DNA from: an uncultured Pseudomonadales bacterium
GTDB taxonomy: Bacteria > Patescibacteriota > Microgenomatia > UBA1400 > UBA1396
Assembly (NCBI GenBank): GCA_964603945.1
Contig: CAZRWP010000002.1
Coordinates: 123,880 to 187,879 of the forward strand
Direction: 5' to 3'
Length of the DNA stretch: 64,000 nucleotides
Shown: positions 2,344-54,564 of the stretch, piece after piece
How the letters are laid out: each line of letters starts with the position of its first letter
How positions within the stretch are numbered: the first letter of the stretch is position 1
Notes under the pieces: model-generated
What the model saw: only the letters and a program-made list of their open reading frames with translations
Databases searched by the model: none
Told to the model about the DNA's origin: nothing
Made by a program: the position numbers and the translations under genes

Positions 2344-4215
2344 CTACTCCCACTCAGTTGTAGCTGGCGGCTTGCCAGTGAGGTCATAAGCAACTCGGCT
2401 AATACCAGGGACTTCCGCTAAGATCCGATCAACCATTTTATTAACAACATTTATTGAGATCTGTTTGCCTGGAGTAGCTGGAATTCCGGTCATAAAGTCA
2501 TTGGTGATAATGGTGCGGATCACGATAGTTCTTGAGCCAGGTTGATCAAAGCCGACCGGAATTAAAATGACAGGAGCTTGACTAATCTGGCGAATTTCGC
2601 CAGATTTAAGTAACTCTTGGGTGACAATATCATCCGCCCGTCTAAGTTGTTCAATTACTGGTGGTTGAAGTTTAGTTGGCGTGATCTCGGTAACTGGTTG
2701 AGTCAGAGTCGGACCAAACAAGTAGACCACGCGATTAAGCTGATGAATAGTTTTAGGCAATTTCTTGGCTAGTTCCATTAAGATAGGCCAGTCTGGTTTG
2801 CCGGAAATGGCGGCGGCGTAACTGTAGGTACGGCCGTCGCCTTGGACACCAACCGAACGGACCGGTAATAAGGAAATTTGATTATTATTGGTAGCAAATT
2901 TTTTCAATTCTTGATCAATCTTGTCAAAATCTGGGGTGATATAAGGTTCATCAGCACACAGAATTCGGATGGCTAAGCCGGGTCCTGGAAATGGATGGCG
3001 CCAAACAATTTCAGCGGGCAAACCAAGTTGCTCGCCTAGAATGCGCACCTCGTCTTTATGATAATCCGCTAAAGGTTCAATAATTTTTCCTTGACTTCGC
3101 AGTTGGCGGACAGTTGAGGTATCGTTGTGGTGAGTTTTGATTACTTCTGCCTTGCTGGTTACACCGCTTGACGCACTCTCGATCAAATCCGGACGCAAAG
3201 TACCTTGAACCAAAAAAGTATTGTCAGTTGGAAGGTTGAGCCTTTTGACTTCCCGCTCAGTAATTTTCATAAAGGTGTCGCCAATGATGTTGCGCTTCTC
3301 TTCTGGGTTAATAGTCTGATCTAAGCGGGCGGTTTGTTTTCCGTTTAAAGTGGTTTGAGCAGACAGAAAATCTTGAGTGGCATCCACAACCGTTAGCTTT
3401 AAGCCAAATTGCTTGAGTGATTTGCTAACAGCTGAGCTTTCATTTTGGCGCATGAAGCCAGTATCAATATGCAAAGCAAACACTCGGTCGGCACCAATTG
3501 CTTTAGTCACTAATGCTGCCGCTACCGTTGAGTCCACGCCTCCGCTTACTAAAACTAAGGCAGTACCGTCACCAACCTTGGATTTAATTTCCTTGATTGC
3601 CTGTTGAACGCGGTCTTCCATGGTGTAATTGGGTTGAAGCTTAGCAACTTTAAATAGGAAGTTTGACAGTATCTCTTTTCCGTACTTAGTTAAGTCAACT
3701 TCTGGATGAAATTGGACTCCATACCATGGGTATATATTGTGTTCAATACCGGAAATAAGATCGTTAGACATCGCAATAACTCTAAAATTATAGGCTACTT
3801 TATTTACTGTGTCACCATGCGTTAATAAAACTTCTTGGGTTGGTGGCAGTGAGTCAAATATTAATGAGTCAGCAGTAGTTTTAATTTGAAAAACGCCATC
3901 TTCTCTCTGCTCTTTCCGCTCCACCGTTCCGCCATGAACATAATTCATCAGTTGCATACCAAAACAAATACCCAGAATTGGTTTATCCAGTTTTAATAAC
4001 TCCGGATCATATTTGGGAACGCTGGCACTGTAGACACTTTCCGGACCACCAGAAATAATAATTGCTCCAAATTTGATGAGTTCAGTTATTGGAGTATCTA
4101 GGGGCAAGATTACTGATTCCACCGCTAAATCTCTTATCCGGCGGTCAATTACTTTGGCATACTGAGCACCGGCATCCAAAATAGCTACTTGGAATTGTTT
4201 ATTCGAATCAGACAT
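2344..4215 (-). CDS. guaA: GMP synthase (glutamine-hydrolysing), long eukaryote-type form
   Basis: N-terminal class-I GATase (GICFGMQ, HPE). ATP-PPase P-loop SGGVDS. C-terminal bipartite dimerisation domain (GDGRTYSY...NRVVYLFGP...IRTIITNDFMTGIPATPG...GISRVAYDLTGKPPATTEWE). Length 623 aa versus about 515 for typical bacterial GuaA. Confidence 0.9.
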   Translation of the reverse strand: MSDSNKQFQVAILDAGAQYAKVIDRRIRDLAVESVILPLDTPITELIKFGAIIISGGPESVYSASVPKYDPELLKLDKPILGICFGMQLMNYVHGGTVERKEQREDGVFQIKTTADSLIFDSLPPTQEVLLTHGDTVNKVAYNFRVIAMSNDLISGIEHNIYPWYGVQFHPEVDLTKYGKEILSNFLFKVAKLQPNYTMEDRVQQAIKEIKSKVGDGTALVLVSGGVDSTVAAALVTKAIGADRVFALHIDTGFMRQNESSAVSKSLKQFGLKLTVVDATQDFLSAQTTLNGKQTARLDQTINPEEKRNIIGDTFMKITEREVKRLNLPTDNTFLVQGTLRPDLIESASSGVTSKAEVIKTHHNDTSTVRQLRSQGKIIEPLADYHKDEVRILGEQLGLPAEIVWRHPFPGPGLAIRILCADEPYITPDFDKIDQELKKFATNNNQISLLPVRSVGVQGDGRTYSYAAAISGKPDWPILMELAKKLPKTIHQLNRVVYLFGPTLTQPVTEITPTKLQPPVIEQLRRADDIVTQELLKSGEIRQISQAPVILIPVGFDQPGSRTIVIRTIITNDFMTGIPATPGKQISINVVNKMVDRILAEVPGISRVAYDLTGKPPATTEWE

Positions 4216-4870
4216 CTGCGCTTATTCCTTGTACTGTTCCTTGGTTGTAACGTTCAGATTTAACTTGCTCCTGCAAGATGATCTCACCTGTTTTGGAGAT
4301 TGATTCTATTCTCATTAAAGAAAAGACCGGAACACCGGTTTCTTGTTGAATTTGCTCTACCCCTTTTTGCCAAACTTTGTCGAATATAATTGCCAAGCCA
4401 ACAATTTCCGCTTTTTTAGCTTGCAAAGCCTTAATGGCGGCAATTGCTGTTGTGCCATGCGCCACGACGTCGTCAACTAAAAGCAGTCTCATACCAGGTT
4501 TAACAAAGCCAATTTGGCTCACCACTTCGTCCTGGTCAGTTGTAAAGGAACTATTTTTAAAAGTAACAACTGATTCCCAAGATCCGGGAGCGGTGATAGT
4601 TCTTTTGGATGGCAGTATTTTTTTAACCCGAAGCATGTCGGCTACCATCGACACTAAGCGTGAGCCGGCGTCCGGCAGACCGACAATTGCCTCGATGCGT
4701 GGTTCTTCAATATAATGCTCAGCCCAACAGCGTGAAACTAGTGATAGTAGATCAGGATCTAGCGCCAAATTGAAAGGCGTAGCCTTGATATAACCTTTCT
4801 CAATGTCTTGAACTTGTGACAAATTTTTAAACTCGCGTCGTAAAATGGAAAGGGAATTAGATGCATTCAT
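4208..4870 (-). CDS. type I phosphoribosyltransferase (purine/adenine PRTase-like)
   Basis: PRPP-binding motif LLLVDDVVAHGTTAIAAI. The ORF overlaps guaA by 8 nt, suggesting an operon. Confidence 0.6.
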   Translation of the reverse strand: MNASNSLSILRREFKNLSQVQDIEKGYIKATPFNLALDPDLLSLVSRCWAEHYIEEPRIEAIVGLPDAGSRLVSMVADMLRVKKILPSKRTITAPGSWESVVTFKNSSFTTDQDEVVSQIGFVKPGMRLLLVDDVVAHGTTAIAAIKALQAKKAEIVGLAIIFDKVWQKGVEQIQQETGVPVFSLMRIESISKTGEIILQEQVKSERYNQGTVQGISADV

Positions 4871-5124
4871 AAAAATATCTTTCTGATTTTTTCCTTAATG
4901 AAACACTGCTTGAGGCCGAGACCTAGATCGAGACTGGAGCTGATGATTTATAGTTTGGCTAATGTTAGAGGTCGCGCCGTGAGAAAACTGAGTTGTAAAA
5001 TCTAAAATTTGGCTGAATGCGAGCTCAGCTAATGACATGGTTAGAGAGATCATAAAGAGAATCCGACCAAGAAGCAAGCAATTGCTAAGAGGTAGGTGAT
5101 GACTATTAAAACTTAAGCGGATAT

Positions 5125-5715
5125 CTACACTTTAAGCGCGCCACGCCAGCCCCGGGAGCTGTAGTAAGAGTCAGCTCCGTTATGGTAGACAAAGACGTGG
5201 TCATAGCGACGATCGGCAAAGAGCGCACCACCGAGCTTCCGAATTTCTGGCGGCGTAATTATCCAGGTGGATGTTTTAAGATCAAATTCACCTAATGTTT
5301 GTAGGTGGCGGTATTCGGACTCATTTAAAAGAGTTATGCCCATGGCCGCCGCCATGTCCAGCGCATTATTTTTGGGTGGATATTTTTTGCGTCCTGCTTG
5401 CGCTTCACGGTCATAACAAACGTTGCGGCGGCCGGCCGGAGTTTCAGCACTGCAATCATAAAAAATTAAATCTTTGGTTTTTTTATCCTGCCCCACCACA
5501 TCCGGCTCGCCGCCGGTATTTTCCATTTCATTAAGTGACCAAAGTTTTTGGGGATTAGTCTCAAGTTTTGCCCGAACTTTATCCCAGGACAGATTGGGGT
5601 GCCGATTTGGATTATCATCAAAGCGCGTTTGCAGTGTACTCAAAAGTTCTTCTTGCTCAGTCGATGACAACTTATTTTTAGATCCGGTTTGGGGTGAGGA
5701 TTTTTTGTCTGCCAT
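5125..5715 (-). CDS. DUF4256 family protein
   Basis: Conserved blocks LWSLNEMENTGGEPDVVG, FYDCSAE.P.GRR.VCYDREA, IRKLGGA.F.DRRYDHVFVYHNGA.SYY are recognised from the DUF4256 family. Confidence 0.55.
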   Translation of the reverse strand: MADKKSSPQTGSKNKLSSTEQEELLSTLQTRFDDNPNRHPNLSWDKVRAKLETNPQKLWSLNEMENTGGEPDVVGQDKKTKDLIFYDCSAETPAGRRNVCYDREAQAGRKKYPPKNNALDMAAAMGITLLNESEYRHLQTLGEFDLKTSTWIITPPEIRKLGGALFADRRYDHVFVYHNGADSYYSSRGWRGALKV

Positions 5716-5773
5716 ATAAGTGGTTAAGCATTATAGCGGGCGAATGTTTGGGTTAATGGAAGAAATTTGTAAG

Positions 5774-6205
5774 TTAAACTAGATTCCTCTTTCGATCCGA
5801 CTCTAAAATTAACTCAGCCACTAGCGGTGATATCACTAGTGACAGCAACACAAAAATCCATGTTTCGCCTTGCCAAAAATAGTAAGTCTTTAAAACTTCC
5901 TCAAAACTTAACTGCCGGACAAACATATTCATAAAGGTTTCAAACATAACGGTAAGCAGGATCCAGATGAGTCCGGCATTTACCAAGTCTTGGCGAGTAT
6001 ATTCACTCATCGTCCGCTTCAAAAAGATATATATGGCTGAAAAGAAAAGCAATATGGCCGTAACCGAGCTGATCTGGTGTGCCCAGTTGCCTATATAAGG
6101 AGTCAGCCAAGGCTTGTAGGTCAGTTCCCTAGTAATGGCATTGATAAAAGCTAGCACCAGTAAGACAAGCCAAAACAAGATCGCTTGTTTGTAAAAAGGT
6201 TTCAT
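5774..6205 (-). CDS. hypothetical integral membrane protein (about 4 TM)
   Basis: Hydrophobic segments throughout; no recognisable motif. Confidence 0.45.
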   Translation of the reverse strand: MKPFYKQAILFWLVLLVLAFINAITRELTYKPWLTPYIGNWAHQISSVTAILLFFSAIYIFLKRTMSEYTRQDLVNAGLIWILLTVMFETFMNMFVRQLSFEEVLKTYYFWQGETWIFVLLSLVISPLVAELILESDRKRNLV

Positions 6206-6243
6206 TTTATGACTAAATTATAACGCTTTTAGTTGGAAGAAAA

Positions 6244-6777
6244 TCAATTTATCTTTTTACTTTTCCGCCACCCGTAACCAAAAACAACAGCAAACGCCAG
6301 ACTCACCACGGGATACCAATAACTTAAGGCTCCTACCGCAAATCCAAATAGAAAAGCAAAAGATAATATGACCGATGTTATTAGCATCACATGATAGGAG
6401 CGGTGTGCGGTATCACGATCAACCTCTTGCCAATCCGGAGTGAGATCCGGACCTACTCGTGATTCAGGCACATGCCCAATTACTTCATATTTGGTAATAA
6501 TTAACAAAATCGGTGACCAGCGTGCCCGAATGATGTCGCCACGTCTTACAGGTGTATGCACTTGGCTATCTGGAATGGAAAGTGAGCGATCCCAACGCTC
6601 GGGCGTGAGATAGGTTTGGCTGTAATCTTCCTGGCTATAGTCCAGCAACCCCAGCTTGGCCGGTTCAGGATCGTCCACACCGGCAATCGTAAATTCATCG
6701 GTAAATTGATACATCATGATCAGTGCCCGGATGATTTTGGCGGCAATTCGGAGAGCTAGTTCTTGGGCGATAGTCAT
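6244..6777 (-). CDS. hypothetical protein with C-terminal TM segments
   Basis: ORF with hydrophobic C-terminus (VILSFAFLFGFAVGALSYWYPVVSLAFAVVFGYGW); no recognisable motif. Confidence 0.4.
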   Translation of the reverse strand: MTIAQELALRIAAKIIRALIMMYQFTDEFTIAGVDDPEPAKLGLLDYSQEDYSQTYLTPERWDRSLSIPDSQVHTPVRRGDIIRARWSPILLIITKYEVIGHVPESRVGPDLTPDWQEVDRDTAHRSYHVMLITSVILSFAFLFGFAVGALSYWYPVVSLAFAVVFGYGWRKSKKIN

Positions 6778-6787
6778 GGGATTATAT

Positions 6788-7768
6788 TTATAAACTTTTT
6801 GCCAGATCCAAGAGACTTTCAGATTGTTGATGCCAATCTTTAGTTTCTTGACTATTATCTCCCTGGGATATCAACTGAGAAGTTTTTAAATAATAGGCGG
6901 CGTAAGATGCTCGAATTAGCACGGGGAGTGAATCAATTTCAGCGGAAGAAAGCGGATGAAAATCCAGATAAACGTCAATAACCTCCGTCATTATTTGTGA
7001 ACGGTTGTGCCAATTATCTTCACTTAAACAAAACCAAGCTAAATAGGTAGATAAATCAACGACTTTTAAATCATGACTCATGCAACCAAAATCTAAAATA
7101 CAATACTGTCCCGCTAAATTACGCAAAACATGTTTGCGTTGCATATCGCCGTGAATGACACTTTTAGAAAAATTGCTGGTGTCAAGGTTGCGTAATTCGT
7201 TATCCACGATAGCCACTTTTTCTTTAACTATGAGGGATATATCTGCCGAGGAAGCATCAAATTCTTTAGCAAGATTTTTGTTCCCCCAATCATCGTAAGC
7301 TTCTGTCACCGGAAAAGTTAGGGTATTTAAACGGGCTAAGTACTCAGAAATTTCTTTCATTTCTTCAAGCTGAGGGGTGCGGTATTTATAATCTTCTCCA
7401 TTCCAAAAACGTGTTAAGTAATAAGGGATGGCGGTTAAATCATGATACTGACTGAAGTAGTCACCATGAGAATTAGGAATTAACTCAAGCACCGGCACAC
7501 CTACCTTAGGAGCTTCAACTAGGATCTTAATCAAGTCGGATATGTTTTCTTTTTGCCGATTTGATTCAAAAATCTTGAGTACATAATTGCCGTTTTCACA
7601 AATGAGGACAAAGTTAGCTGCTTCGTACCCTTCAACAATTGGCTTGACCGATTGAATAGCTCCAATCTTTGAGTAAGTGCTAATTAGCGAATTTAAAAAG
7701 TCGGAAAATGATGCCGTTAGCGCGGTTCGGCGTAGGAGCTGATCAACTTCTTTGCTATTAGCAAACAT
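6788..7768 (-). CDS. phosphotransferase family protein (APH/choline-kinase-like protein kinase fold)
   Basis: Catalytic loop HGDMQRKHVLRN (HGD..N) and ILDFGCMSHD (DFG-like); about 326 aa. Confidence 0.6.
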   Translation of the reverse strand: MFANSKEVDQLLRRTALTASFSDFLNSLISTYSKIGAIQSVKPIVEGYEAANFVLICENGNYVLKIFESNRQKENISDLIKILVEAPKVGVPVLELIPNSHGDYFSQYHDLTAIPYYLTRFWNGEDYKYRTPQLEEMKEISEYLARLNTLTFPVTEAYDDWGNKNLAKEFDASSADISLIVKEKVAIVDNELRNLDTSNFSKSVIHGDMQRKHVLRNLAGQYCILDFGCMSHDLKVVDLSTYLAWFCLSEDNWHNRSQIMTEVIDVYLDFHPLSSAEIDSLPVLIRASYAAYYLKTSQLISQGDNSQETKDWHQQSESLLDLAKSL

Positions 7769-7974
7769 AATTGAAGTTTAGCATTAACTTTTCAATAATT
7801 ATCGTTATGTTATCAATAATAATAAAATATAAGAATAATAATCCAAAGAATTTTGATTGATAATTTATATTGCATCGTTTTTATAGTATTGATAGTATAT
7901 CCCCTATTTATCATCTAAATCTATACTAATTGTTCTCAGCAAGATATAATTACGAAAATAATTAACGGATATAT

Positions 7975-29887: not shown

Positions 29888-30253
29888 GTAGAGTCAGACC
29901 GTACATGCACAACAATAATATGGCGAATTACTGAGGACGACTATGACAAATATGACAGTCAGTTCCGTGATGAGCTGGCTGATATAGACGCACGACTCAG
30001 AATGTTACAAGAAGCTGACGATCAGTTCTTTGTCTCGGCTAAATACATTCTTGAGCTTTCCAAAAGAGCGAAAGAATTATTCGAAAGTTCGAAAATCGAG
30101 CAAAGACGCCAAATTATCAAACTGGTACTTTCGAACCTAACATTAGAGGGTAAAAAATTGCGATATGAAGCCGTTAAACCATTCGACACAATCTTAAATT
30201 GTGCTGATGGTCAACGATGGCTCCCCCGCGAGGATTCGAACCTCGAACCTTGA
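29888..30253 (+). pseudogene. remnant of a recombinase C-terminal region (likely large serine recombinase tail), no start codon, reading into the tRNA-Asn 3' end
   Basis: Frame open from 29888 with the first ATG at 30002. Translation ...ITEDDYDKYDSQFRDELADIDARLRMLQEADDQFFVSAKYILELSKRAKELFESSKIEQRRQIIKLVLSNLTLEGKKLRYEAVKPFDTI... is coiled-coil/recombinase-tail-like. The last 12 codons are encoded by the tRNA. Confidence 0.35.
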
Positions 30254-30292
30254 AGTTAACAGCTTCCTGCTCTACCATTGAGCTACAGGGGA
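30218..30292 (-). tRNA. tRNA-Asn (GTT)
   Basis: Hand fold: acceptor UCCCCUG/CGGGGGA, D-arm GCUCAAUGGUAGAGC, anticodon loop CUGUUAA, T-arm CGAGGUUCGAAUCCUCG, CCA encoded. 5' U1 as in E. coli tRNA-Asn. Confidence 0.85.
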
Positions 30293-41718: not shown

Positions 41719-43492
41719 TTGATACACTTATTAAATATGAATTTTCTAAATTGGAATGAATTTTCTCGATATGCTACTTATTTTGTGCTGATATTTGTCT
41801 TATTACTAACCTTGATATTTAGATTTTGGCAGCTTGAGTTGATACCCAGCGGCTTAAATTGGGATGAAGCAGCTTATGGTTATAACTCTTATAGTTTGCT
41901 TTTAACCGGAAATGACGAATGGGGTGTTAGCTGGCCAATTTTTCTTAGGTCATTTGGTGATTTCAAACCGGCTCTACTAAGCTATCTGCAAATACCTCTG
42001 ATTTATTTTAATGGTTTAACAACAAATTCATTGCGTATTCCAGTTGCCCTATTGGGAGTGATTAGCTTGATAAGCTGGTGGACGATCCAAAATAAGTTGG
42101 AGCTATTTTCAACCAAAAATATTCCAAATTAATGCCGCTAATTGGTTTGTTACTATTAGCTACCTCTCCTTGGCATATTCATTACAGCCGGTCAGCCATG
42201 GACCCGATTGTTTCATTTGCTTTTTTAATGATGGGATACGCTTTATTTATTCAAAAACAGGCAGCGCTTAGATGGTTTGGCGTAGCCTCCCTAATTTTAT
42301 CCATGTATACCTACAATTCAGCTCGCCTGTTTGTACCCATATTACTTTTACTGCACTTAATAATTTTTGAATTGCCCATTATCCAAAAATATAGGAAGAA
42401 CCTATATCGGCTTTGGCAATTCGTTGTCATCTGGCTTAGTTGTTTATTAATTTTAGCTGCGACTTTATTTACTGAGGTGGGGTCACGCGCCCAATCTGTC
42501 TTTATTTTGAATAAACCGCAAATCCAGGATCAAACTAATGAGTCTATTTATCGTTCAACTGCCCTGGGAATGAAAGGCTTAAGGTTTTACAGCAACAAGG
42601 CCATAACCGCCACTTATGAAGTCACAAAAAATTACATTTCGCACTTTGATCCGCTCTTTTTATACTTTGATCACAATTTAAGTGCCCGCCACGGATTTAG
42701 TCGGCATGGCAATCTTTTACTTATTACTTTACCGTTTTTAGTTTGGGGATTATTTTCCGCCAATGTAAAAAATCCAAGCGAAATTTGTTTTTTTTGTTAT
42801 GGCTGATTTTGGCACCAATTCCTTCAGCTTTAAGCGATGATGTACCCCACTCCGGACGAACCTTAATTATGCTGCCAGCAATAATTTATTTTATCTCAAT
42901 GGGCATGGAAAAGTTTTTCCTAATGGCTGACAGCGTAAAATTACGACTTCATAAAAAGTTGCCTAATTATCTTCTACCAATGTTGGTTGTTGTCGGATTG
43001 TCATTAAATGCTGGTCTATACTTTGTAGATTTGTACCGTTACTTTCCTGAAGATTCCTACTTTGATTGGCAAGGTGATGCCCACACAATTGTTGAATTAA
43101 TTAAGGAAATAGATACCGAGGAAGATGAATCAATTGTTGTCACTAATGAACTCCTGGAATCCTATATTTTCTATGCCTTTTATACTCAGCTTGATCCTAA
43201 AGTGTTGCAGGCTCAGCATAATGCGGTTGATTTAAACACATATGGAGAAGTATCTATTGATGATGTAGATGTTTGCACCTTACTTAAACCAAATACCTTG
43301 GTTATAACCACGCAAGACTACACTTTGAGTTTGCCAAAAGCTGTATTAGATGAAAATGAAAAATTATACTCAGAAACAATCTGGCCCTTTAACCGATTCT
43401 CACAGGGGAAACCCTTAGGTTATGTGTATAGATCAAACCTCATAACTCCGAAAGCGCAGGCGGCAATTGAGGGATTGTGCGAGGTAGATTAA
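41719..43492 (+). pseudogene. GT39-family (PMT/ArnT-like, undecaprenyl/dolichyl-phosphate-dependent) glycosyltransferase split into three ORFs by two -1 frame changes at homopolymers
   Basis: ORF1 41719..42132 (WDEAAYGYNSY...FKPALLSYL). ORF2 42132..42806 (LLLATSPWHIHYSRSAMDP). ORF3 42743..43492. Junction 1 at an A5 run (about 42115-42119). Junction 2 at a T8 run (42788-42795). In each case +1 nt restores a continuous protein of about 590 aa. Confidence 0.6.
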
Positions 43493-43502
43493 TAGGGTGC
43501 GG

Positions 43503-43563
43503 AGGGAGTGGTCACTCGTCAGGCATGACTCGTGACATTAGCCACGCTCGCCTACGGCATGAG
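43503..43563. repeat. conserved roughly 60-nt element (copy A), immediately 3' of tRNA-Ser and flanked by 13-bp direct repeats of the tRNA 3' end (GCGGAGGGAGTGG)
   Basis: cactcgtcaggcatgactcgtgacattagccacgctcgcctacggcatgagc aligns at about 85% with 49411..49460. Flank repeats at 43498-43510 and 43568-43580. Confidence 0.5.
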
Positions 43564-43565
43564 CT

Positions 43566-43653
43566 TGGCGGAGGGAGTGGGATTCGGACCCACGGTATCT
43601 TGCGATACGGCGGTTTAGTAAACCGCTGCACTAGACCACTATGCGATCCCTCC
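43566..43653 (-). tRNA. tRNA-Ser (class II, long variable arm); anticodon reads ACT in the hand fold
   Basis: Acceptor GGAGGGA/UCCCUCC, G73, CCA encoded, D-arm GCA-UAGUGGUCUAG-UGC, anticodon stem GCGGU/ACCGC with loop UUACUAA, 17-nt variable arm, T-arm GUGGG-UCCGAAU-CCCAC. Anticodon needs tRNAscan confirmation. Confidence 0.7.
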
Positions 43654-47510: not shown

Positions 47511-48295
47511 AACGCAATTTTGTAGTCTTGCGCCAGCTGTTAATTTCATATTTGGCCATAGCCCTAACCTACCGTGCCGATTTTATTCAGAGCGTGTTGG
47601 CTAGTGTGCTTTGGAGTGCCTTTAGCTTTTTATCTGCCTATTTAGTCACCAGTCAAACTCCAGCTATTTTTGGACTAACCAGGGCGGATCTCTTGCTGTT
47701 AGCGTCCACTTATGGCATCATTGTCGGAATTCATCATTGGTTATTTACCAGAGGTTTTCATGGAGTTTGGCACGTTATTCATCGGGGTGAATTAGATGGT
47801 TATCTGTTGAGACCTTTTAATACGCTGACATTTTTATCTTTAAGAAGCATTGCCTGGGGAAGTGTGTTCAGAGTCGCCGGATCGGTTCTGACCACTGCCT
47901 GGATAATTAATCACTACGGCATAATAGTTGAGTGGTGGCAAGTGGTTTTATTTAGTGCACTGACCATTCCGGCCATCTTAGCGATTTATGCATTTTATTC
48001 CATCAGTGTCACGGTGCTTATCTGGCATCCATACTTATCCAACTTGTTAGATTTGATGGGCGTGACGGTGAGTACGGCGCGTTATCCACTGGATATAGTC
48101 AGGTATACACCAATTTGGTTTGTTGGTTGGATTGTGCCGTTTTTAGCGGTGGTAAATATGCCTACCAGAGCCTTGACTAATCGCTTGGGCGTGGCTGATG
48201 GCCTGGTTTTTGTTGGATTTTGCGTTGGCTTATGGTTATTTTCCCGCTGGTTTTGGCGCTACGCCTTAAAGTTTTACACCAGTGCGAGTGGGTAG
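47507..48295 (+). CDS. ABC-2 type transporter permease (second subunit)
   Basis: ATGA overlap with the previous permease; multi-TM. Confidence 0.55.
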   Translation: MKRNFVVLRQLLISYLAIALTYRADFIQSVLASVLWSAFSFLSAYLVTSQTPAIFGLTRADLLLLASTYGIIVGIHHWLFTRGFHGVWHVIHRGELDGYLLRPFNTLTFLSLRSIAWGSVFRVAGSVLTTAWIINHYGIIVEWWQVVLFSALTIPAILAIYAFYSISVTVLIWHPYLSNLLDLMGVTVSTARYPLDIVRYTPIWFVGWIVPFLAVVNMPTRALTNRLGVADGLVFVGFCVGLWLFSRWFWRYALKFYTSASG

Positions 48296-49378
48296 AGGCT
48301 CCTCAACGGAATCCTGCTCAATTTCCTTAGGCAGTAAATCAATGACACTCGTTAATATTTGCAATTGAGCCGATACTTCAACTGTAGTTGGTAAGATATT
48401 CTGTAATATTGATGGAACTTCTCTAAACAATTCCAGATTTCCTGGCCAATGGCGATGATGAGTAGTAGTAGCGGCTATGTCAGCGTATCTAAACTGAAAC
48501 AGGAGGGTGAAAAATCTCACGATAAGATCAGGTCTATTTTCCGGTAATGTTGGTAGTAGAACATTAGCAATTTCCGTTTTAAGCCAGTTGGTTAAAGAAC
48601 CATTTTTATCAGAACCTTTAAAAATAAAGTCGTGATGATGCATAATGACATTTAGTAATAGATGTGACTGATCCTCAGTGAGTTGCTGGGTTGAATTGTT
48701 TTGCTTGATGTAATCTAAAAGTTTTTTTGTAATAACTGTGCCGATTAAAGAATGACTTGGATGGGTATGTTTGCCATCGTTTTTATACTCCTCTTGCAAT
48801 TTGCTTCTGAGATCTAGGTCATAGACGGCGTCAGTCGGCAAGAAATTTACCCCTGCCATTTTGCCGATATCATGTAGCCATGGTAATATTTGGGCTACAA
48901 TTATGTCTTCGTAATATATTGGTAATTCAATATAATTGTTCGCCACACGGCTAATATGATCAAAGGGTGTGACCTTATTTCCTGGCTGTGACAACTGTTC
49001 TTTTGAGACAATTATTGAAGTGGAACCTAAAGCTTGAAAAAGTGGGGACTGACTCAATATTTTAGTAATATTCCCTATTTCTGAGTCAGAAAGTTTTGTG
49101 CTGGATTTTGTTCTTAAGTATTTTAATAGATAAGCAAGAGTTTCGCTGTCTTGTTCTAAACTTTCCCAATCTAAGTTTATAGTTTGCTCACCGTTTTCTA
49201 GGTCACAGTTAAATTTGAAGAAAGCAGGTTGACCTTGTTTTTCGGCAACCAGCATATCAAGGGCGGCCTTTTGTTTTTCGACCAAAATACGCATGATGAT
49301 CCAAGTTAAATCAGTCTCAGTTAAAGGTCTCGATGGATAAAATTCAGAAATTTCTACATCTGGCATAAATGGGATCAT
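48266..49378 (-). CDS. HD-domain phosphohydrolase-like protein
   Basis: LPWLHDIGKMAG (HD motif), HTHPSHSLIG, IMHHHDFIF. Confidence 0.55.
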   Translation of the reverse strand: MIPFMPDVEISEFYPSRPLTETDLTWIIMRILVEKQKAALDMLVAEKQGQPAFFKFNCDLENGEQTINLDWESLEQDSETLAYLLKYLRTKSSTKLSDSEIGNITKILSQSPLFQALGSTSIIVSKEQLSQPGNKVTPFDHISRVANNYIELPIYYEDIIVAQILPWLHDIGKMAGVNFLPTDAVYDLDLRSKLQEEYKNDGKHTHPSHSLIGTVITKKLLDYIKQNNSTQQLTEDQSHLLLNVIMHHHDFIFKGSDKNGSLTNWLKTEIANVLLPTLPENRPDLIVRFFTLLFQFRYADIAATTTHHRHWPGNLELFREVPSILQNILPTTVEVSAQLQILTSVIDLLPKEIEQDSVEEPLPTRTGVKL

Positions 49379-49403
49379 AACATGTCAAAAATGAAAATAG
49401 GAG

Positions 49404-49460
49404 AGGGTGGACACTCGTAAGGTATAACTCGTGACATTAGTCACGCTCGCCTACGGCATG
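49404..49460. repeat. conserved roughly 60-nt element (copy B), flanked by partial tRNA-Ser 3'-end-like repeats (GGAGAGGGTGG ... GGTGGTGGGATTC), about 170 nt from tRNA-Ser(GGA)
   Basis: gacactcgtaaggtataactcgtgacattagtcacgctcgcctacggcatgggttt aligns with copy A at 43503..43563. Confidence 0.5.
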
Positions 49461-49591
49461 GGTTTGGTGGTGGGATTCCCCGACTCGACCTGATTTCATC
49501 AGGGCTCGCTGGACTAGTCAATTGTTCGCAATAAATTGCTCACCTTTGCCGTCGGAACATAGGCTTCGCTCCGTTACACCATCAGTATACC

Positions 49592-49619
49592 AAAAAAGAC
49601 GTATGTATACGTCTTTTTT
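49592..49619. terminator. bidirectional rho-independent terminator (A6-GACGTAT-GT-ATACGTC-T6)
   Basis: Perfect palindrome flanked by A and T tracts, directly downstream of the tRNA-Ser(GGA) 3' end. Confidence 0.65.
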
Positions 49620-49625
49620 AGTATG

Positions 49626-49708
49626 CGGAGGTGGTGGGATTCGAACCCACGGAGCCCGAAGGCTCACGCTTTCCAGGCGTGTGCAATTGACCACTATGCG
49701 ACACCTCC
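49626..49708 (-). tRNA. tRNA-Ser (GGA), class II; CCA not encoded
   Basis: Acceptor GGAGGUG/CACCUCC, G73, anticodon stem CACGC/GCGUG with loop CUGGAAA, variable arm AGCCUUCGGGCUCC, T-arm GUGGG-UUCGAAU-CCCAC. Confidence 0.8.
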
Positions 49709-52083: not shown

Positions 52084-54564
52084 TTAGTTGCCGAAAGTTG
52101 GCGGTTTTGGTGGCTGAAGCCCGGCTGGTGCGGCTGGCTGGATGTCTTGTCCAGTGGTTGGTTGGGCAGGAAGTTGTTCAGAGGTTGGCTGAGTAGGAGG
52201 CTGTTCGTCTGCCTGAGGTCCGACTGGCGAATTAACTGTTGGCTGGGTTACATCCTGTGAATCAACTGGTGGTTGTGTTGTTGTTGATTCAACCGATTGA
52301 GGCATATTTGGCGGTGTCAAAGCTGAGTCTGTTGATAAAGTCTCATTAAAAGAAACATTTGAGGGATAGGTGGGGGCGGATGAAGGCATAGCTGATGGTG
52401 CTGGCGTACCGGTAACCGGCGCATCTGAGCTGGATCCGGTCTCAGTAGATGGTACTGTTTGAACTGCCTCGGCTCCTTGGCTGGAGTCCTCTAATGGAGA
52501 CATTTCATCATCTGAAAGAACCACTGGAATGTCTTGAACCATTTGTACTAGTTCATTCAAGCTATCTTGAACCTCATCTGCATTGTCAGGGATTTCAAGG
52601 GTTTCAGGGGACTGGGTTGGTGCAGGTGTAGGACTGGATGTTGGCGCGGGAGTTGTTTCATCTGCTCCCATTTTGCTTAATTCTTGATTCCCTGGCTGTT
52701 CTGGCTCAGAAAATACTTCAGCTGGCGTAAAATCTGTCCCCTGATCTGAAGATTCGTTATTTTCGATTGACAAATCAAGAGTTGGAGTTGAGGTTTGAGC
52801 AGGCGTTGATGCCTGGGCAGGAGCAGGTGTAGGTGTTGGTGCGGAAGTTCGCATAGGTGCTGGTGCCGAAGCAGGTTCTTGCGTTGGCGTTGGCACTGAA
52901 TCTGCTGTCGGTGTTTGTGATAAATCTGGCACTGGCTTAATAGATGGCATTGCATTTGGCATAGCCGATGTTGGCGTTGAAATTGGTGCCTCTGCCGGCA
53001 GAGGAGTTGGTTCTGATGAAGGTGAACTATTTACCTCAGCATTGGGCTGTGGTTGAGCATTGGGCTGTGGTTCAACATTTGGTGGGGTTTGAGCTACCTG
53101 ATCTGTTGGCGTTGTATCTGACATAGCAATACTTTCTAAGTTTGTTGGGTCTTGAGACATTGGGCTAGGTTGAGGTGTGGAAATAGGTGCTTGAGCAGGA
53201 ACTGGCTCAGTTGCCGGAGCTGGCATTTGGGCTGTTTGATTAGAAGGCTCAGGCTGAGAAGCAGGATAAGTCGGAGAAGTTGGAGCAGTTTGCATAGCAG
53301 GTTGTGTGGAAGCCATCAGAATTTCTTCAATTCTTAAAAGCCGATTATATTTAACGACTCTTTCACCTCTGGATGGGGCGCCAAATTTAACGTAATCAGT
53401 TCCAATGCCGACGGCAATATCTGCTAAAACGTCATCAGTAGTTTCGCTAGAACGGTGCGACATGATGGTGTGCCAGCCGGCTTGCTTGGCAATACTGGCT
53501 ACTTCAATAGCTTCCGTAATAGTTCCAATCCGGTTAGGCTTAATGACCAAAGCATTGCAGGCCTTTTCTTCAATTGCTTTCATGAGTAACGTTTTGTTGG
53601 TGGCGATCAGGTCATCAGCGATAATCATTGCTGTCTCGCCCATCTCACCAGTAATAAATTTCCAATCACTCCAGGCTTCCGGTACTAATGGATCCTCAAA
53701 AGCGAAAACCCGATATTGTTCATGCAGTTTTTTAAGATACTTGGCAAAATCCTTGCCACTCATTGGCTGAGATTGATCTTTAATGGTGTATTTGCCGCTT
53801 TTATGGAAGTTATCTGAGCCGACATCAATTCCTAAAAAGGCATCCTTAGAAATGGTGTAGTTAGCGGCTTTAGCGGCTTCGGCAAAAATTTCCAAGGCAT
53901 CTGTATTGGTAGCCAGGTTAGGTGCAAAACCACCCTCCAGACCAACATTGGTTAGAGCACCCTTTTGTTTGAGCACTTCCTCAATTGACATGAACATCTC
54001 CACACCAATTTTTAGAGCTTGGTTGTATGGTAGATGGCTGGCAGGAACAAGTTGGAACTCCTGGAAATCCAAGGTGCCGCCACCATGGCGGCCGCCATTA
54101 ATTAAATTAAAAATGGGTGAAGGAATGCGGAAAGCATCGATTAATTGGTATTTTTCTTTAACATAGACAAACAGCGGCAAACGCAAGGAAGCCGCGGCCG
54201 CCTTCATCACTGCCTGGGAAACCGCCAGAATCGTATTAGAGCCTAAGCGTGATTTATTTTTGGTACCGTCTAGATCCACCAGCAGCTGGTCAATCTTAGT
54301 CTGGTAAAGTGGATCTTGCCCGGCTAGTTTTTGGTTGATTTCCACATTTATCAAAGCGACTGCTTTTGAGACGCCCAGGCCAAAATACTCAGTTGGCACA
54401 TGATCGCGCAGCTCAACCGCCTCCACTTGCTCATTGCTTATGTTACCTGAGGGAACCGATGAAGTCGCAATGGTGCCATCGGACAGGGTGACGGTAGCCT
54501 CAACCGTTGGGCGTCCTCTGGAATCAAGTATTTGACGGGCGGTGATAAGTTGAATATTTGACAT
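52084..54564 (-). CDS. eno: enolase fused to a roughly 390-aa Pro/Thr/Ser/Ala/Gln-rich low-complexity C-terminal extension
   Basis: Enolase blocks SRGRPTVEATV, SHRSSETTDDVLADIAVG, KFGAPSRGERVVKYNRLLRIEEIL. After the enolase domain at about 430 aa the frame continues into ...TAPTSPTYPASQPEPSNQTAQMPAPATEPVPAQ... through ...PPKPPTFGN. Confidence 0.85.
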   Translation of the reverse strand: MSNIQLITARQILDSRGRPTVEATVTLSDGTIATSSVPSGNISNEQVEAVELRDHVPTEYFGLGVSKAVALINVEINQKLAGQDPLYQTKIDQLLVDLDGTKNKSRLGSNTILAVSQAVMKAAAASLRLPLFVYVKEKYQLIDAFRIPSPIFNLINGGRHGGGTLDFQEFQLVPASHLPYNQALKIGVEMFMSIEEVLKQKGALTNVGLEGGFAPNLATNTDALEIFAEAAKAANYTISKDAFLGIDVGSDNFHKSGKYTIKDQSQPMSGKDFAKYLKKLHEQYRVFAFEDPLVPEAWSDWKFITGEMGETAMIIADDLIATNKTLLMKAIEEKACNALVIKPNRIGTITEAIEVASIAKQAGWHTIMSHRSSETTDDVLADIAVGIGTDYVKFGAPSRGERVVKYNRLLRIEEILMASTQPAMQTAPTSPTYPASQPEPSNQTAQMPAPATEPVPAQAPISTPQPSPMSQDPTNLESIAMSDTTPTDQVAQTPPNVEPQPNAQPQPNAEVNSSPSSEPTPLPAEAPISTPTSAMPNAMPSIKPVPDLSQTPTADSVPTPTQEPASAPAPMRTSAPTPTPAPAQASTPAQTSTPTLDLSIENNESSDQGTDFTPAEVFSEPEQPGNQELSKMGADETTPAPTSSPTPAPTQSPETLEIPDNADEVQDSLNELVQMVQDIPVVLSDDEMSPLEDSSQGAEAVQTVPSTETGSSSDAPVTGTPAPSAMPSSAPTYPSNVSFNETLSTDSALTPPNMPQSVESTTTQPPVDSQDVTQPTVNSPVGPQADEQPPTQPTSEQLPAQPTTGQDIQPAAPAGLQPPKPPTFGN

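Follow-up and report, generated by a model that had tools for sequence, protein, structure and literature searches.

The window analysed here is a stretch of 64,000 nucleotides (nt), positions 123,880 to 187,879 of contig CAZRWP010000002.1 (assembly GCA_964603945.1), whose genes include those for a sigma-70 factor, primase, GMP synthase, FtsW and a Mur ligase and which appears to come from the chromosome of an uncultured member of the candidate phyla radiation (CPR). Two of its four tRNA genes (detected with ARAGORN and Rfam) encode tRNA-Ser, both on the minus strand, and each is accompanied by one copy of a short non-coding element of 54 nt. This element is probably the conserved right-end module of a small gene-less insertion that sits at the very 3′ terminus of tRNA-Ser genes in a CPR lineage of the Microgenomates type, that is, either a miniature non-autonomous insertion or an attachment-site (att) scar. 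The most likely reading is that mobile DNA left it behind as a footprint, and not that it serves as a signal for tRNA processing. Judged from sequence comparison, the insertion is shown to leave the tRNA intact, and the last 12-14 nt of the gene, comprising the (C)CAC of the T-stem 3′ strand, the 7-nt acceptor strand, a G and C(A), are shown to be duplicated, or displaced, beyond the insert. An intact tRNA, a repeat that is specific to each locus, an empty site, the absence of the element at relatives, the decay of one copy and the presence of other inserts together form the signature of a site-specific insertion.

The 3′ ends of tRNA genes are classical landing sites of mobile DNA, and their known occupants are kilobase-sized and have an integrase of their own. 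What is unusual here is that this signature of site-specific insertion is found with gene-less units of 56-225 nt, in which a conserved two-hairpin end abuts the duplicated target, and in a host lineage (CPR/Microgenomates) about whose mobile elements little is known. If these units are still mobile, they would define the minimal substrate of a tRNA-Ser-specific recombinase; if they are scars, they would help to trace former integration events as well as rearrangements that involved two tRNA-Ser loci. What makes them valuable is above all the conserved two-hairpin end, together with a second, unexplained segment of the insert, termed module X.

Copies of the element and repeats of the tRNA-Ser 3′ end

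The original prediction, that the window holds two related copies of a short element, is borne out. A 34-nt core, ACTCGTGACATTAGYCACGCTCGCCTACGGCATG, is found in the window only at 43528-43561 and 49427-49460, with no match expected by chance, and the two copies, A (43512-43565) and B (49411-49464), are identical at 46 of 53 aligned positions (~87%). These are the two copies present in the 64 kb, and both lie at tRNA-Ser genes. DNA that is the same as the window, or nearly so, recurs in several independent metagenome assemblies (L001, L002, L008, L009 and L013), so the features described below are not assembly artefacts; the gene for tRNA-Ser(ACU), the target of copy A, is identical in L001, L002 and L009. 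Four independent loci are known (A and B in the window, L005 and L043 elsewhere) and, for this reason, the polarity of the insertion rests on parsimony.

At locus A (Table 1), the expected bracketing of the element by repeats of the adjoining tRNA 3′ end proved to be exact over 13 nt. The repeat, CCACTCCCTCCGC in the tRNA sense and GCGGAGGGAGTGG on the plus strand, spans the 3′ strands of the T-stem and of the acceptor stem, together with the discriminator G and one more C, and its second copy lies at +54 in the same orientation as the tRNA. The element proper starts directly after the encoded CCA of tRNA-Ser(ACU). Besides this genome-encoded CCA, the tRNA has an atypical T-loop, UCCGAAU, in which C replaces the near-universal U55, and an unusual A34 anticodon; these peculiarities could be a functional oddity, or they could have arisen as a by-product when the neighbouring DNA was inserted. 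Among the tRNA genes of the 64-kb window, there is none for tRNA-Ser(GCU). For annotation, caution is needed, as an encoded CCA and odd tRNA features such as those of tRNA-Ser(ACU) can stem from an insert. Most tRNA genes of the window, L024, L028 and L030 have the discriminator followed by CA and not by CCA, and an encoded CCA is seen only in tRNA-Asn (30218-30292), tRNA-Ser(ACU) and the tRNA-Ser(CGA) of L030.

The informative relatives were reached from the neighbour genes of L005, which encode a low-molecular-weight phosphatase (LMWPc) and a ComF-like protein. In L005, ComF is followed by a tRNA-Ser(UGA) ending in ...CCCACCCCTTCCGCA, a terminator hairpin, a truncated module X ending in GAGAATCCTGCCGCCA, the element, the repeat CCACCCCTTCCGCA and finally ACAGTTGAAAAGTTCTGATAGACCCG. 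The element of this locus is ~83% identical to copy A (counted from the alignment), and CCACCCCTTCCGCA is an exact 14-nt copy of the end of the local tRNA-Ser(UGA), found at +140. In L043, ComF is followed by a tRNA-Ser(UGA) with a different acceptor stem (...CACCCTCTCCGCA), a terminator, GAGAATCCTGCCGCCA, a variant element that is 38 nt long, and CACCCTCTCCGC, which is an exact 12-nt copy of its own tRNA end at +120. The repeats of A, L005 and L043 are three different sequences, in which the ends are conserved, (C)CAC...CGC(A), and the middle varies. Among ~28 tRNA genes compared (those of the window and of the loci fetched), a downstream repeat of at least 12 nt of the gene's own 3′ end was found only at element-bearing tRNA-Ser genes, against a chance expectation of ~0.01 such repeats according to our own arithmetic; none of the remaining ~24 genes has one, and the pattern is not random.

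The empty counterpart of these sites is found in L041, where ComF and a tRNA-Ser(UGA) of the L005 sequence type (two positions differ) are followed directly by ACAATTGAAAAGTTCTGACAGACCCG. L028, L030 and L031 also carry the distal flank of the L041/L005 type directly after their tRNA-Ser(UGA). Since this flank stands directly 3′ of the tRNA in L041, L005 holds an insert of 139 nt plus a 14-nt duplication of the tRNA end and, as the repeat varies with the local tRNA and the L041 site is empty, the repeat marks an insertion. The view, raised by L028 and L030, that everything to the left of the L005 repeat is a large foreign segment was rejected, since according to L041 the insertion comprises just 139 nt, with the tRNA and ComF both native. 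At the tRNA-Ser genes of L028, L030, L039 and L041, whether orthologous or related, the element was detected neither by nhmmer nor by a covariance model (R1, filters off). Synteny through the LUD-domain protein encoded near the locus was uninformative: its nearest homologue, 63% identical, has no adjoining tRNA-Ser, and its homologues are named Roizmanbacteria or Collierbacteria by the sources.

The insert size of about 60 nt that had been proposed holds for locus A, with 56 nt between the repeats; elsewhere, the element is usually the right-hand part of an insertion of 139-225 nt that comprises a terminator hairpin, module X and the element. Locus B illustrates this composition: after tRNA-Ser(GGA) there come a terminator-like hairpin, module X, the element (~160 nt downstream of the tRNA), a remnant repeat and an HD-domain gene. 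The flanks expected for copy B stood only in part. On one side, GGTGGTGGGATTC at 49466-49478 does recur at 49630-49642 within tRNA-Ser(GGA), and this flank is the tRNA-like tail of module X. On the other side, the remnant CCACCCTCTCC matches the acceptor strand of the GGAGAGG-type tRNA-Ser of L039, L043 and L030 and is not derived from tRNA-Ser(GGA), with which it agrees at 9 of 14 positions only. The flanks of copy B do not repeat a single tRNA end and, because CCACCCTCTCC differs from the end of tRNA-Ser(GGA), the notion of one duplicated tRNA end at locus B fails.

Copy B is a decaying, drifting copy. Both of its versions, that of the window and that of the strain variant L008, carry helix-breaking substitutions and have lost the two-hairpin fold described below (z -1.2). 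They differ from each other by 3 substitutions in the 54-nt element and one in the remnant, which reads CTACCCTCTCC in L008, versus 2 in 127 nt of module X. This decay, together with the exact locus-specific repeats and the empty L041 site, supports the first option of the original prediction, namely a miniature or decayed element targeting tRNA-Ser.

Table 1. Coordinates of the features of loci A and B in the window.
Feature	Position	Strand	Basis and remarks
tRNA-Ser, anticodon ACU	43566-43653	-	ARAGORN; 51.7 bits with the Rfam tRNA model; gene targeted at locus A
Left 13-nt direct repeat, CCACTCCCTCCGC in tRNA sense	43568-43580	-	inside tRNA-Ser(ACU)
Element copy A	43512-43567	-	56 nt between the repeats (element proper 54 nt, 43512-43565); reads CAAGCTCA...GAGTGA; covariance model, 97 bits
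Right 13-nt repeat, duplicated or displaced tRNA-Ser 3′ end	43499-43511	-	exact copy; followed by ACC, not CCA
tRNA-Ser(GGA), complete	49625-49708	-	ARAGORN, Rfam; 5′ of the locus B insert
Bidirectional intrinsic-terminator-like hairpin, AAAAAAGACGTAT-ACA-ATACGTCTTTTTT	49592-49619	-	inverted repeat search; right after tRNA-Ser(GGA)
Module X, conserved non-coding segment of ~125 nt	49465-49591	-	nhmmer and alignment; tRNA-like tail GAATCCCACCACCA
Element copy B, 54 nt	49411-49464	-	helix-breaking substitutions; covariance model, 75 bits
Remnant CCACCCTCTCC (plus strand GGAGAGGGTGG)	49400-49410	-	T-stem and acceptor 3′ strand of a GGAGAGG-type tRNA-Ser

The two-hairpin module

The three intact copies (A, L005 and L043) share one minimum free energy (MFE) architecture, with z values from -3.2 to -4.0, which consists of a hairpin alpha, a UAAU linker, a hairpin beta and, finally, (C)CAC plus the acceptor 3′ strand. 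Hairpin alpha is closed by GCCA.GC/GC.UGGC, with the 'CCA' included. In copy A (MFE -27 kcal/mol, z -3.2) this closing stem is GCCAAGC/GCGUGGC and uses the G and C of the tRNA end, while hairpin beta reads GUCAC-GA-GUCA-UGCC-UGAC-GA-GUGAC. The architecture accounts for the fact that conservation within the element is highest in the words CCGCCAAGC and GCRUGGCUAAU. In L043, the sequence of hairpin beta is entirely different and its position and register are kept, which results in three compensatory pairs. Conserved structure, which had been suggested as a check, is thus present as a common architecture in A, L005 and L043, but all the covariation comes from a single lineage, L043: the observed covariation measures were reached by 5-7 of 500 shuffles, and once L043 is left out one compensatory pair remains, a value reached by 122 of 500 shuffles.

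This conserved fold brings in a different explanation, under which the element would function as a structured RNA transcribed from the tRNA strand: a 3′-trailer processing element, a self-cleaving ribozyme that releases tRNA-CCA, or a small RNA with a tail that mimics tRNA-Ser. We consider it quite improbable. The start of the element right after the CCA in all copies agrees with such an RNA, as does the maintenance of the two hairpins despite the different sequence in L043; changes of G-U versus A-U pairs favour the tRNA-sense strand, the sense strand folds slightly better than the antisense, and ~83% identity is kept between organisms where the neighbouring insert sequence is unalignable. 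However, a search of the window, both loci and L039 with Rfam 15, at the gathering threshold and with E values up to 10, returned tRNAs only, the rest being noise. Moreover, tRNA and element are parted by an intrinsic-terminator-like hairpin at B, L005 and L043, three of the four loci, the element is missing at orthologous tRNA-Ser genes, copy B is decaying with a repeat that is mismatched to the local tRNA, and the covariation is confined to one lineage. For these reasons, the alternative given in the original prediction, a structured RNA or processing signal linked to tRNA-Ser genes, is not upheld as stated, yet the two-hairpin architecture itself is conserved. The hairpins at the terminator position of L005, L043 and L039 are of other sequence; a consensus terminator scan made no call on that of locus B (49592-49619).

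Ribozyme motifs were considered and rejected. A hammerhead-like CUGACGAG is present in copy A, but it is not conserved in L005 or B, where the core CUGANGA is replaced by AUGACGA and UUACGA, respectively. As for a ribozyme like that of hepatitis delta virus (HDV), no P1 pairing from the base after the CCA is possible in any copy. HDV-like 'theta' ribozymes occur downstream of phage tRNAs, and the tyrT gene of Escherichia coli is followed by 178-bp repeats, each containing the tRNA 3′ end, which are local tandem duplications in one gene. The loci studied here resemble both in having a short conserved sequence directly after a tRNA 3′ end, and tyrT also in the repetition of the tRNA end downstream; they differ in that no HDV-like fold or Rfam match is found and in that the element is shared between isoacceptors and organisms.

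The relic of a local tandem duplication has to be weighed as well. In this case, the element would be a degenerate second tRNA-Ser that lacks the 5′ acceptor strand and the T-loop, with hairpin alpha as the anticodon arm, UAAU as the variable loop and hairpin beta as the T arm. The succession of a hairpin, 4 nt, a hairpin and an acceptor 3′ strand does resemble the 3′ two-thirds of a tRNA, and module X too ends in a degenerate tRNA-Ser 3′ half. Nevertheless, this origin is very improbable: the element is conserved across the loci of three isoacceptors, with only the terminal 12-14 nt being locus-specific, and the tRNA model gives no match on it. In this sense, the junction between element and repeat is informative: A and L005 have in common ...GAGTGA followed by CCAC, and B has GAGTGT followed by CCAC. 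A junction shared in this way by A, L005 and B does not come from independent local decay.

Proposed mechanism and comparison with known mobile elements

Islands that integrate into tRNA genes reconstitute the gene, and a displaced 3′ fragment stays behind in direct orientation, a principle exploited by Islander for the islands and prophages that tyrosine integrases place in tRNA genes, with reference to the sublocation classes of Williams 2002 (PMC4383910). Elements of the integrative and conjugative type (ICEs), and those of the integrative and mobilizable type (IMEs), decay to gene-less attL-attR units, known as cis-mobilizable elements or CIMEs (PMC5704250). The two hairpins of the module beside the duplicated target would be the site of a recombinase supplied in trans, for which the likeliest candidate would be a tRNA-targeting tyrosine integrase acting in the T-stem/acceptor region, and the loci would be miniature non-autonomous integrated elements or CIME-like att scars. 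Locus A may be a deletion derivative: the tRNA and the X tail both have a ...CCGC, and the terminator and module X would have been lost between these two. The junction CCGCCA followed by AGCTCA is the same in A and in L005. Such a deletion would explain the encoded CCA of tRNA-Ser(ACU), which is unlike most tRNA genes in these genomes. Locus B may be an old, decaying copy that underwent a later rearrangement or exchange between two occupied tRNA-Ser loci, the best explanation for its mismatched flanks. Such an exchange would imply a reciprocal junction made of a GGAGAGG-type tRNA-Ser, X/element and CCACCACCTCCGC, and the order observed in L039, where a GGAGAGG-type tRNA-Ser is followed by a terminator, module X and an HD-like gene, would presumably be the older arrangement.

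Several points weigh against an att-based insertion of this kind. The 56-nt insert of locus A is far too small for a free circular attP. Three different perfect repeats fit a staggered cut with fill-in more easily than one fixed attP core; the att model needs selection for a functional tRNA, and for single-copy tRNA genes it is plausible that only inserts restoring the acceptor stem survive. It is important to note that an 'empty' site would also re-form through a deletion between the repeats, and here again the polarity is given by parsimony. Furthermore, a scan of 40 open reading frames (ORFs) of at least 150 amino acids in the window recognised no integrase, transposase, Cas1 or reverse transcriptase, so that the cognate integrase for which a search had been recommended did not appear among them, and no full-length, gene-carrying relative was found in the viral, genome, metagenome, phage and plasmid collections. 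In these searches, exact-word scans of viral contigs with four patterns gave chance matches only, in GC-rich coding DNA, and those of GTDB genomes with two patterns gave 0 matches and 7 chance matches. One exact-word scan of metagenomes returned true matches in L005 (a divergent homologue), L008, L009 and L013, plus 8 chance matches. Comparison of the element with phage and plasmid collections by blastn found nothing, and the covariance model of the module detected no further copies in ~200 kb of related loci.

Some of these points lead to the footprint of a transposon that makes a staggered cut. The 12-14-nt repeat would then be a true target-site duplication, and locus A a 'solo end'; alternatively, the element would be a non-autonomous one similar to miniature inverted-repeat transposable elements (MITEs) or short interspersed elements (SINEs). 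The three perfect repeats that differ in sequence, with conserved ends and a variable middle, are in line with it, and so is the hairpin that directly adjoins the duplicated target. Casposons, formally the nearest parallel, produce duplications of 14 bp, in which a tetranucleotide is conserved and the centre varies, at the tRNA-Leu 3′ ends of Methanosarcina, where solo terminal inverted repeats (TIRs) are left (PMC4779613). The present loci resemble these solo-TIRs in the approximate length of the duplication (12-14 versus 14 bp), its conserved terminal nucleotides and variable centre, the tRNA 3′ end as target and the short orphan sequence in between. In contrast, casposons are archaeal, encode Cas1 and PolB, and have TIRs defined by full-length copies, whereas here no such copies were found and no Cas1 was seen in the scanned window ORFs, nor was a DDE transposase or a reverse transcriptase. 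The repeats measure 12, 13 and 14 nt, against the fixed ~14-15 bp of casposons, with boundaries that may be blurred by chance identity. An inverted repeat search revealed internal hairpins only and no TIRs linking the ends of the insert in any copy, and the insert bases adjoining the repeats are not conserved (CATGT, TTACA and TACTA on the left; GTGA, GTGT and GGGG on the right). On balance, we regard a staggered-cut footprint as possible but fairly unlikely. A bolder proposal, which we hold to be distinctly unlikely, is that the 54-nt module and the copy of the tRNA-Ser 3′ end form the working end of previously undescribed, very small non-autonomous CPR elements that home to tRNA-Ser 3′ ends by a target-duplicating mechanism, whether casposase-like, target-primed or guided by an RNA or single-stranded DNA hairpin. 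Within this proposal, the identity between repeat and local tRNA might also be maintained through mimicry of the tRNA 3′ end by the element's transcript.

For the favoured insertion or att scar, the islands of tRNA genes are one close parallel. Like them, it shows an intact tRNA followed by a direct-orientation copy of its own 3′ end and has an empty site in a relative; the insert brings a terminator right after the tRNA, and several inserts can lie in tandem at one tRNA. Unlike them, the units have 56-225 nt, are non-coding and contain no integrase gene between the tRNA and the fragment; their repeat is only 12-14 nt long and starts in the T-stem 3′ strand, and no autonomous relative is known. 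The CIMEs so far described are kilobases long and have an identifiable parent ICE. The loci match CIMEs in form only, as gene-less units with att-like repeats at a tRNA 3′ end and accretion with other inserts, but they are one to two orders of magnitude smaller, and no parent ICE or IME was found in the collections searched. With MITEs and repetitive extragenic palindromic (REP)-like sequences they share the features of being short, non-coding, hairpin-forming, repeated and non-autonomous; the differences are their strict location at tRNA-Ser 3′ ends, the lack of TIRs and a duplication longer than that of most MITEs, and the copies in the 64 kb number two.

Module X and neighbouring observations

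Module X ends in a sequence resembling a degenerate tRNA-Ser 3′ half (...GTCGGGGAATCCCACCACCA), and a long-range pairing, UUCCGAC/GUCGGGG, is predicted within it. L039 carries two copies, at 2584-2708 and 1350-1471, both on the minus strand and 68% identical to the module X of the window, each of them lying behind a tRNA-Ser 3′ end, or what is left of one, and a terminator; truncated copies are present in L005 and L043. No Rfam family matched module X when the loci and L039 were scanned. Its identification as a tRNA, a transfer-messenger RNA or an allo-tRNA was rejected, given that there is no acceptable cloverleaf and no call by ARAGORN or Rfam. Possible roles are those of an att arm or of a hitherto unknown small RNA.

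The intergenic site between tRNA-Ser(UGA) and LMWPc is a hot spot for insertions; in L029, an island at 3294-7962 carries a large serine recombinase. A different common remnant, ...GGTTCCAGACCCACATGCTC..., is found in L036 and L037, downstream of LMWPc, and in L043 at ~400-430, and a (GCAAGGT)n microsatellite is present in L036 and L037. Some contigs end exactly at, or within, a tRNA-Ser 3′ end, as is the case for the end of L030 (9636-9724), the ends of L034 and L035, and the start of L038; these breaks are consistent with a repeated or polymorphic sequence at that position. On the reverse strand of L029, at ~3400-3520, there is a tRNA-like sequence, GCATCCATAGTTTAATAGG...GGCAGTTCGATTCTGCCTGGATGCA, with an insertion of ~40 nt near the anticodon region and no call by ARAGORN, which may be an intron-containing or disrupted tRNA.

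Regarding the neighbouring genes, the HD-domain gene of locus B (48266-49366) is preceded by TGTTATGAT, an extended -10-like box located ~7 nt before the ATG (window 49366-49395, minus strand) and kept in L039; the closeness of this box to the ATG suggests a leaderless mRNA. On the 5′ side of locus A, at 41719-43492 on the plus strand, what is apparently one membrane protein is distributed over three overlapping ORFs, whose fragments gave no Pfam match in the window. The same split is repeated in the independent assembly L001, and the counterpart in L024 is a PMT_2 glycosyltransferase of 514 amino acids; the split gene may be a pseudogene or may involve programmed frameshifts. Finally, the enolase ORF of the window (52084-54564, minus strand) is unusually long, with 826 amino acids, and comprises Enolase_N, Enolase_C and extra sequence according to the Pfam marks on the identical gene of L002.

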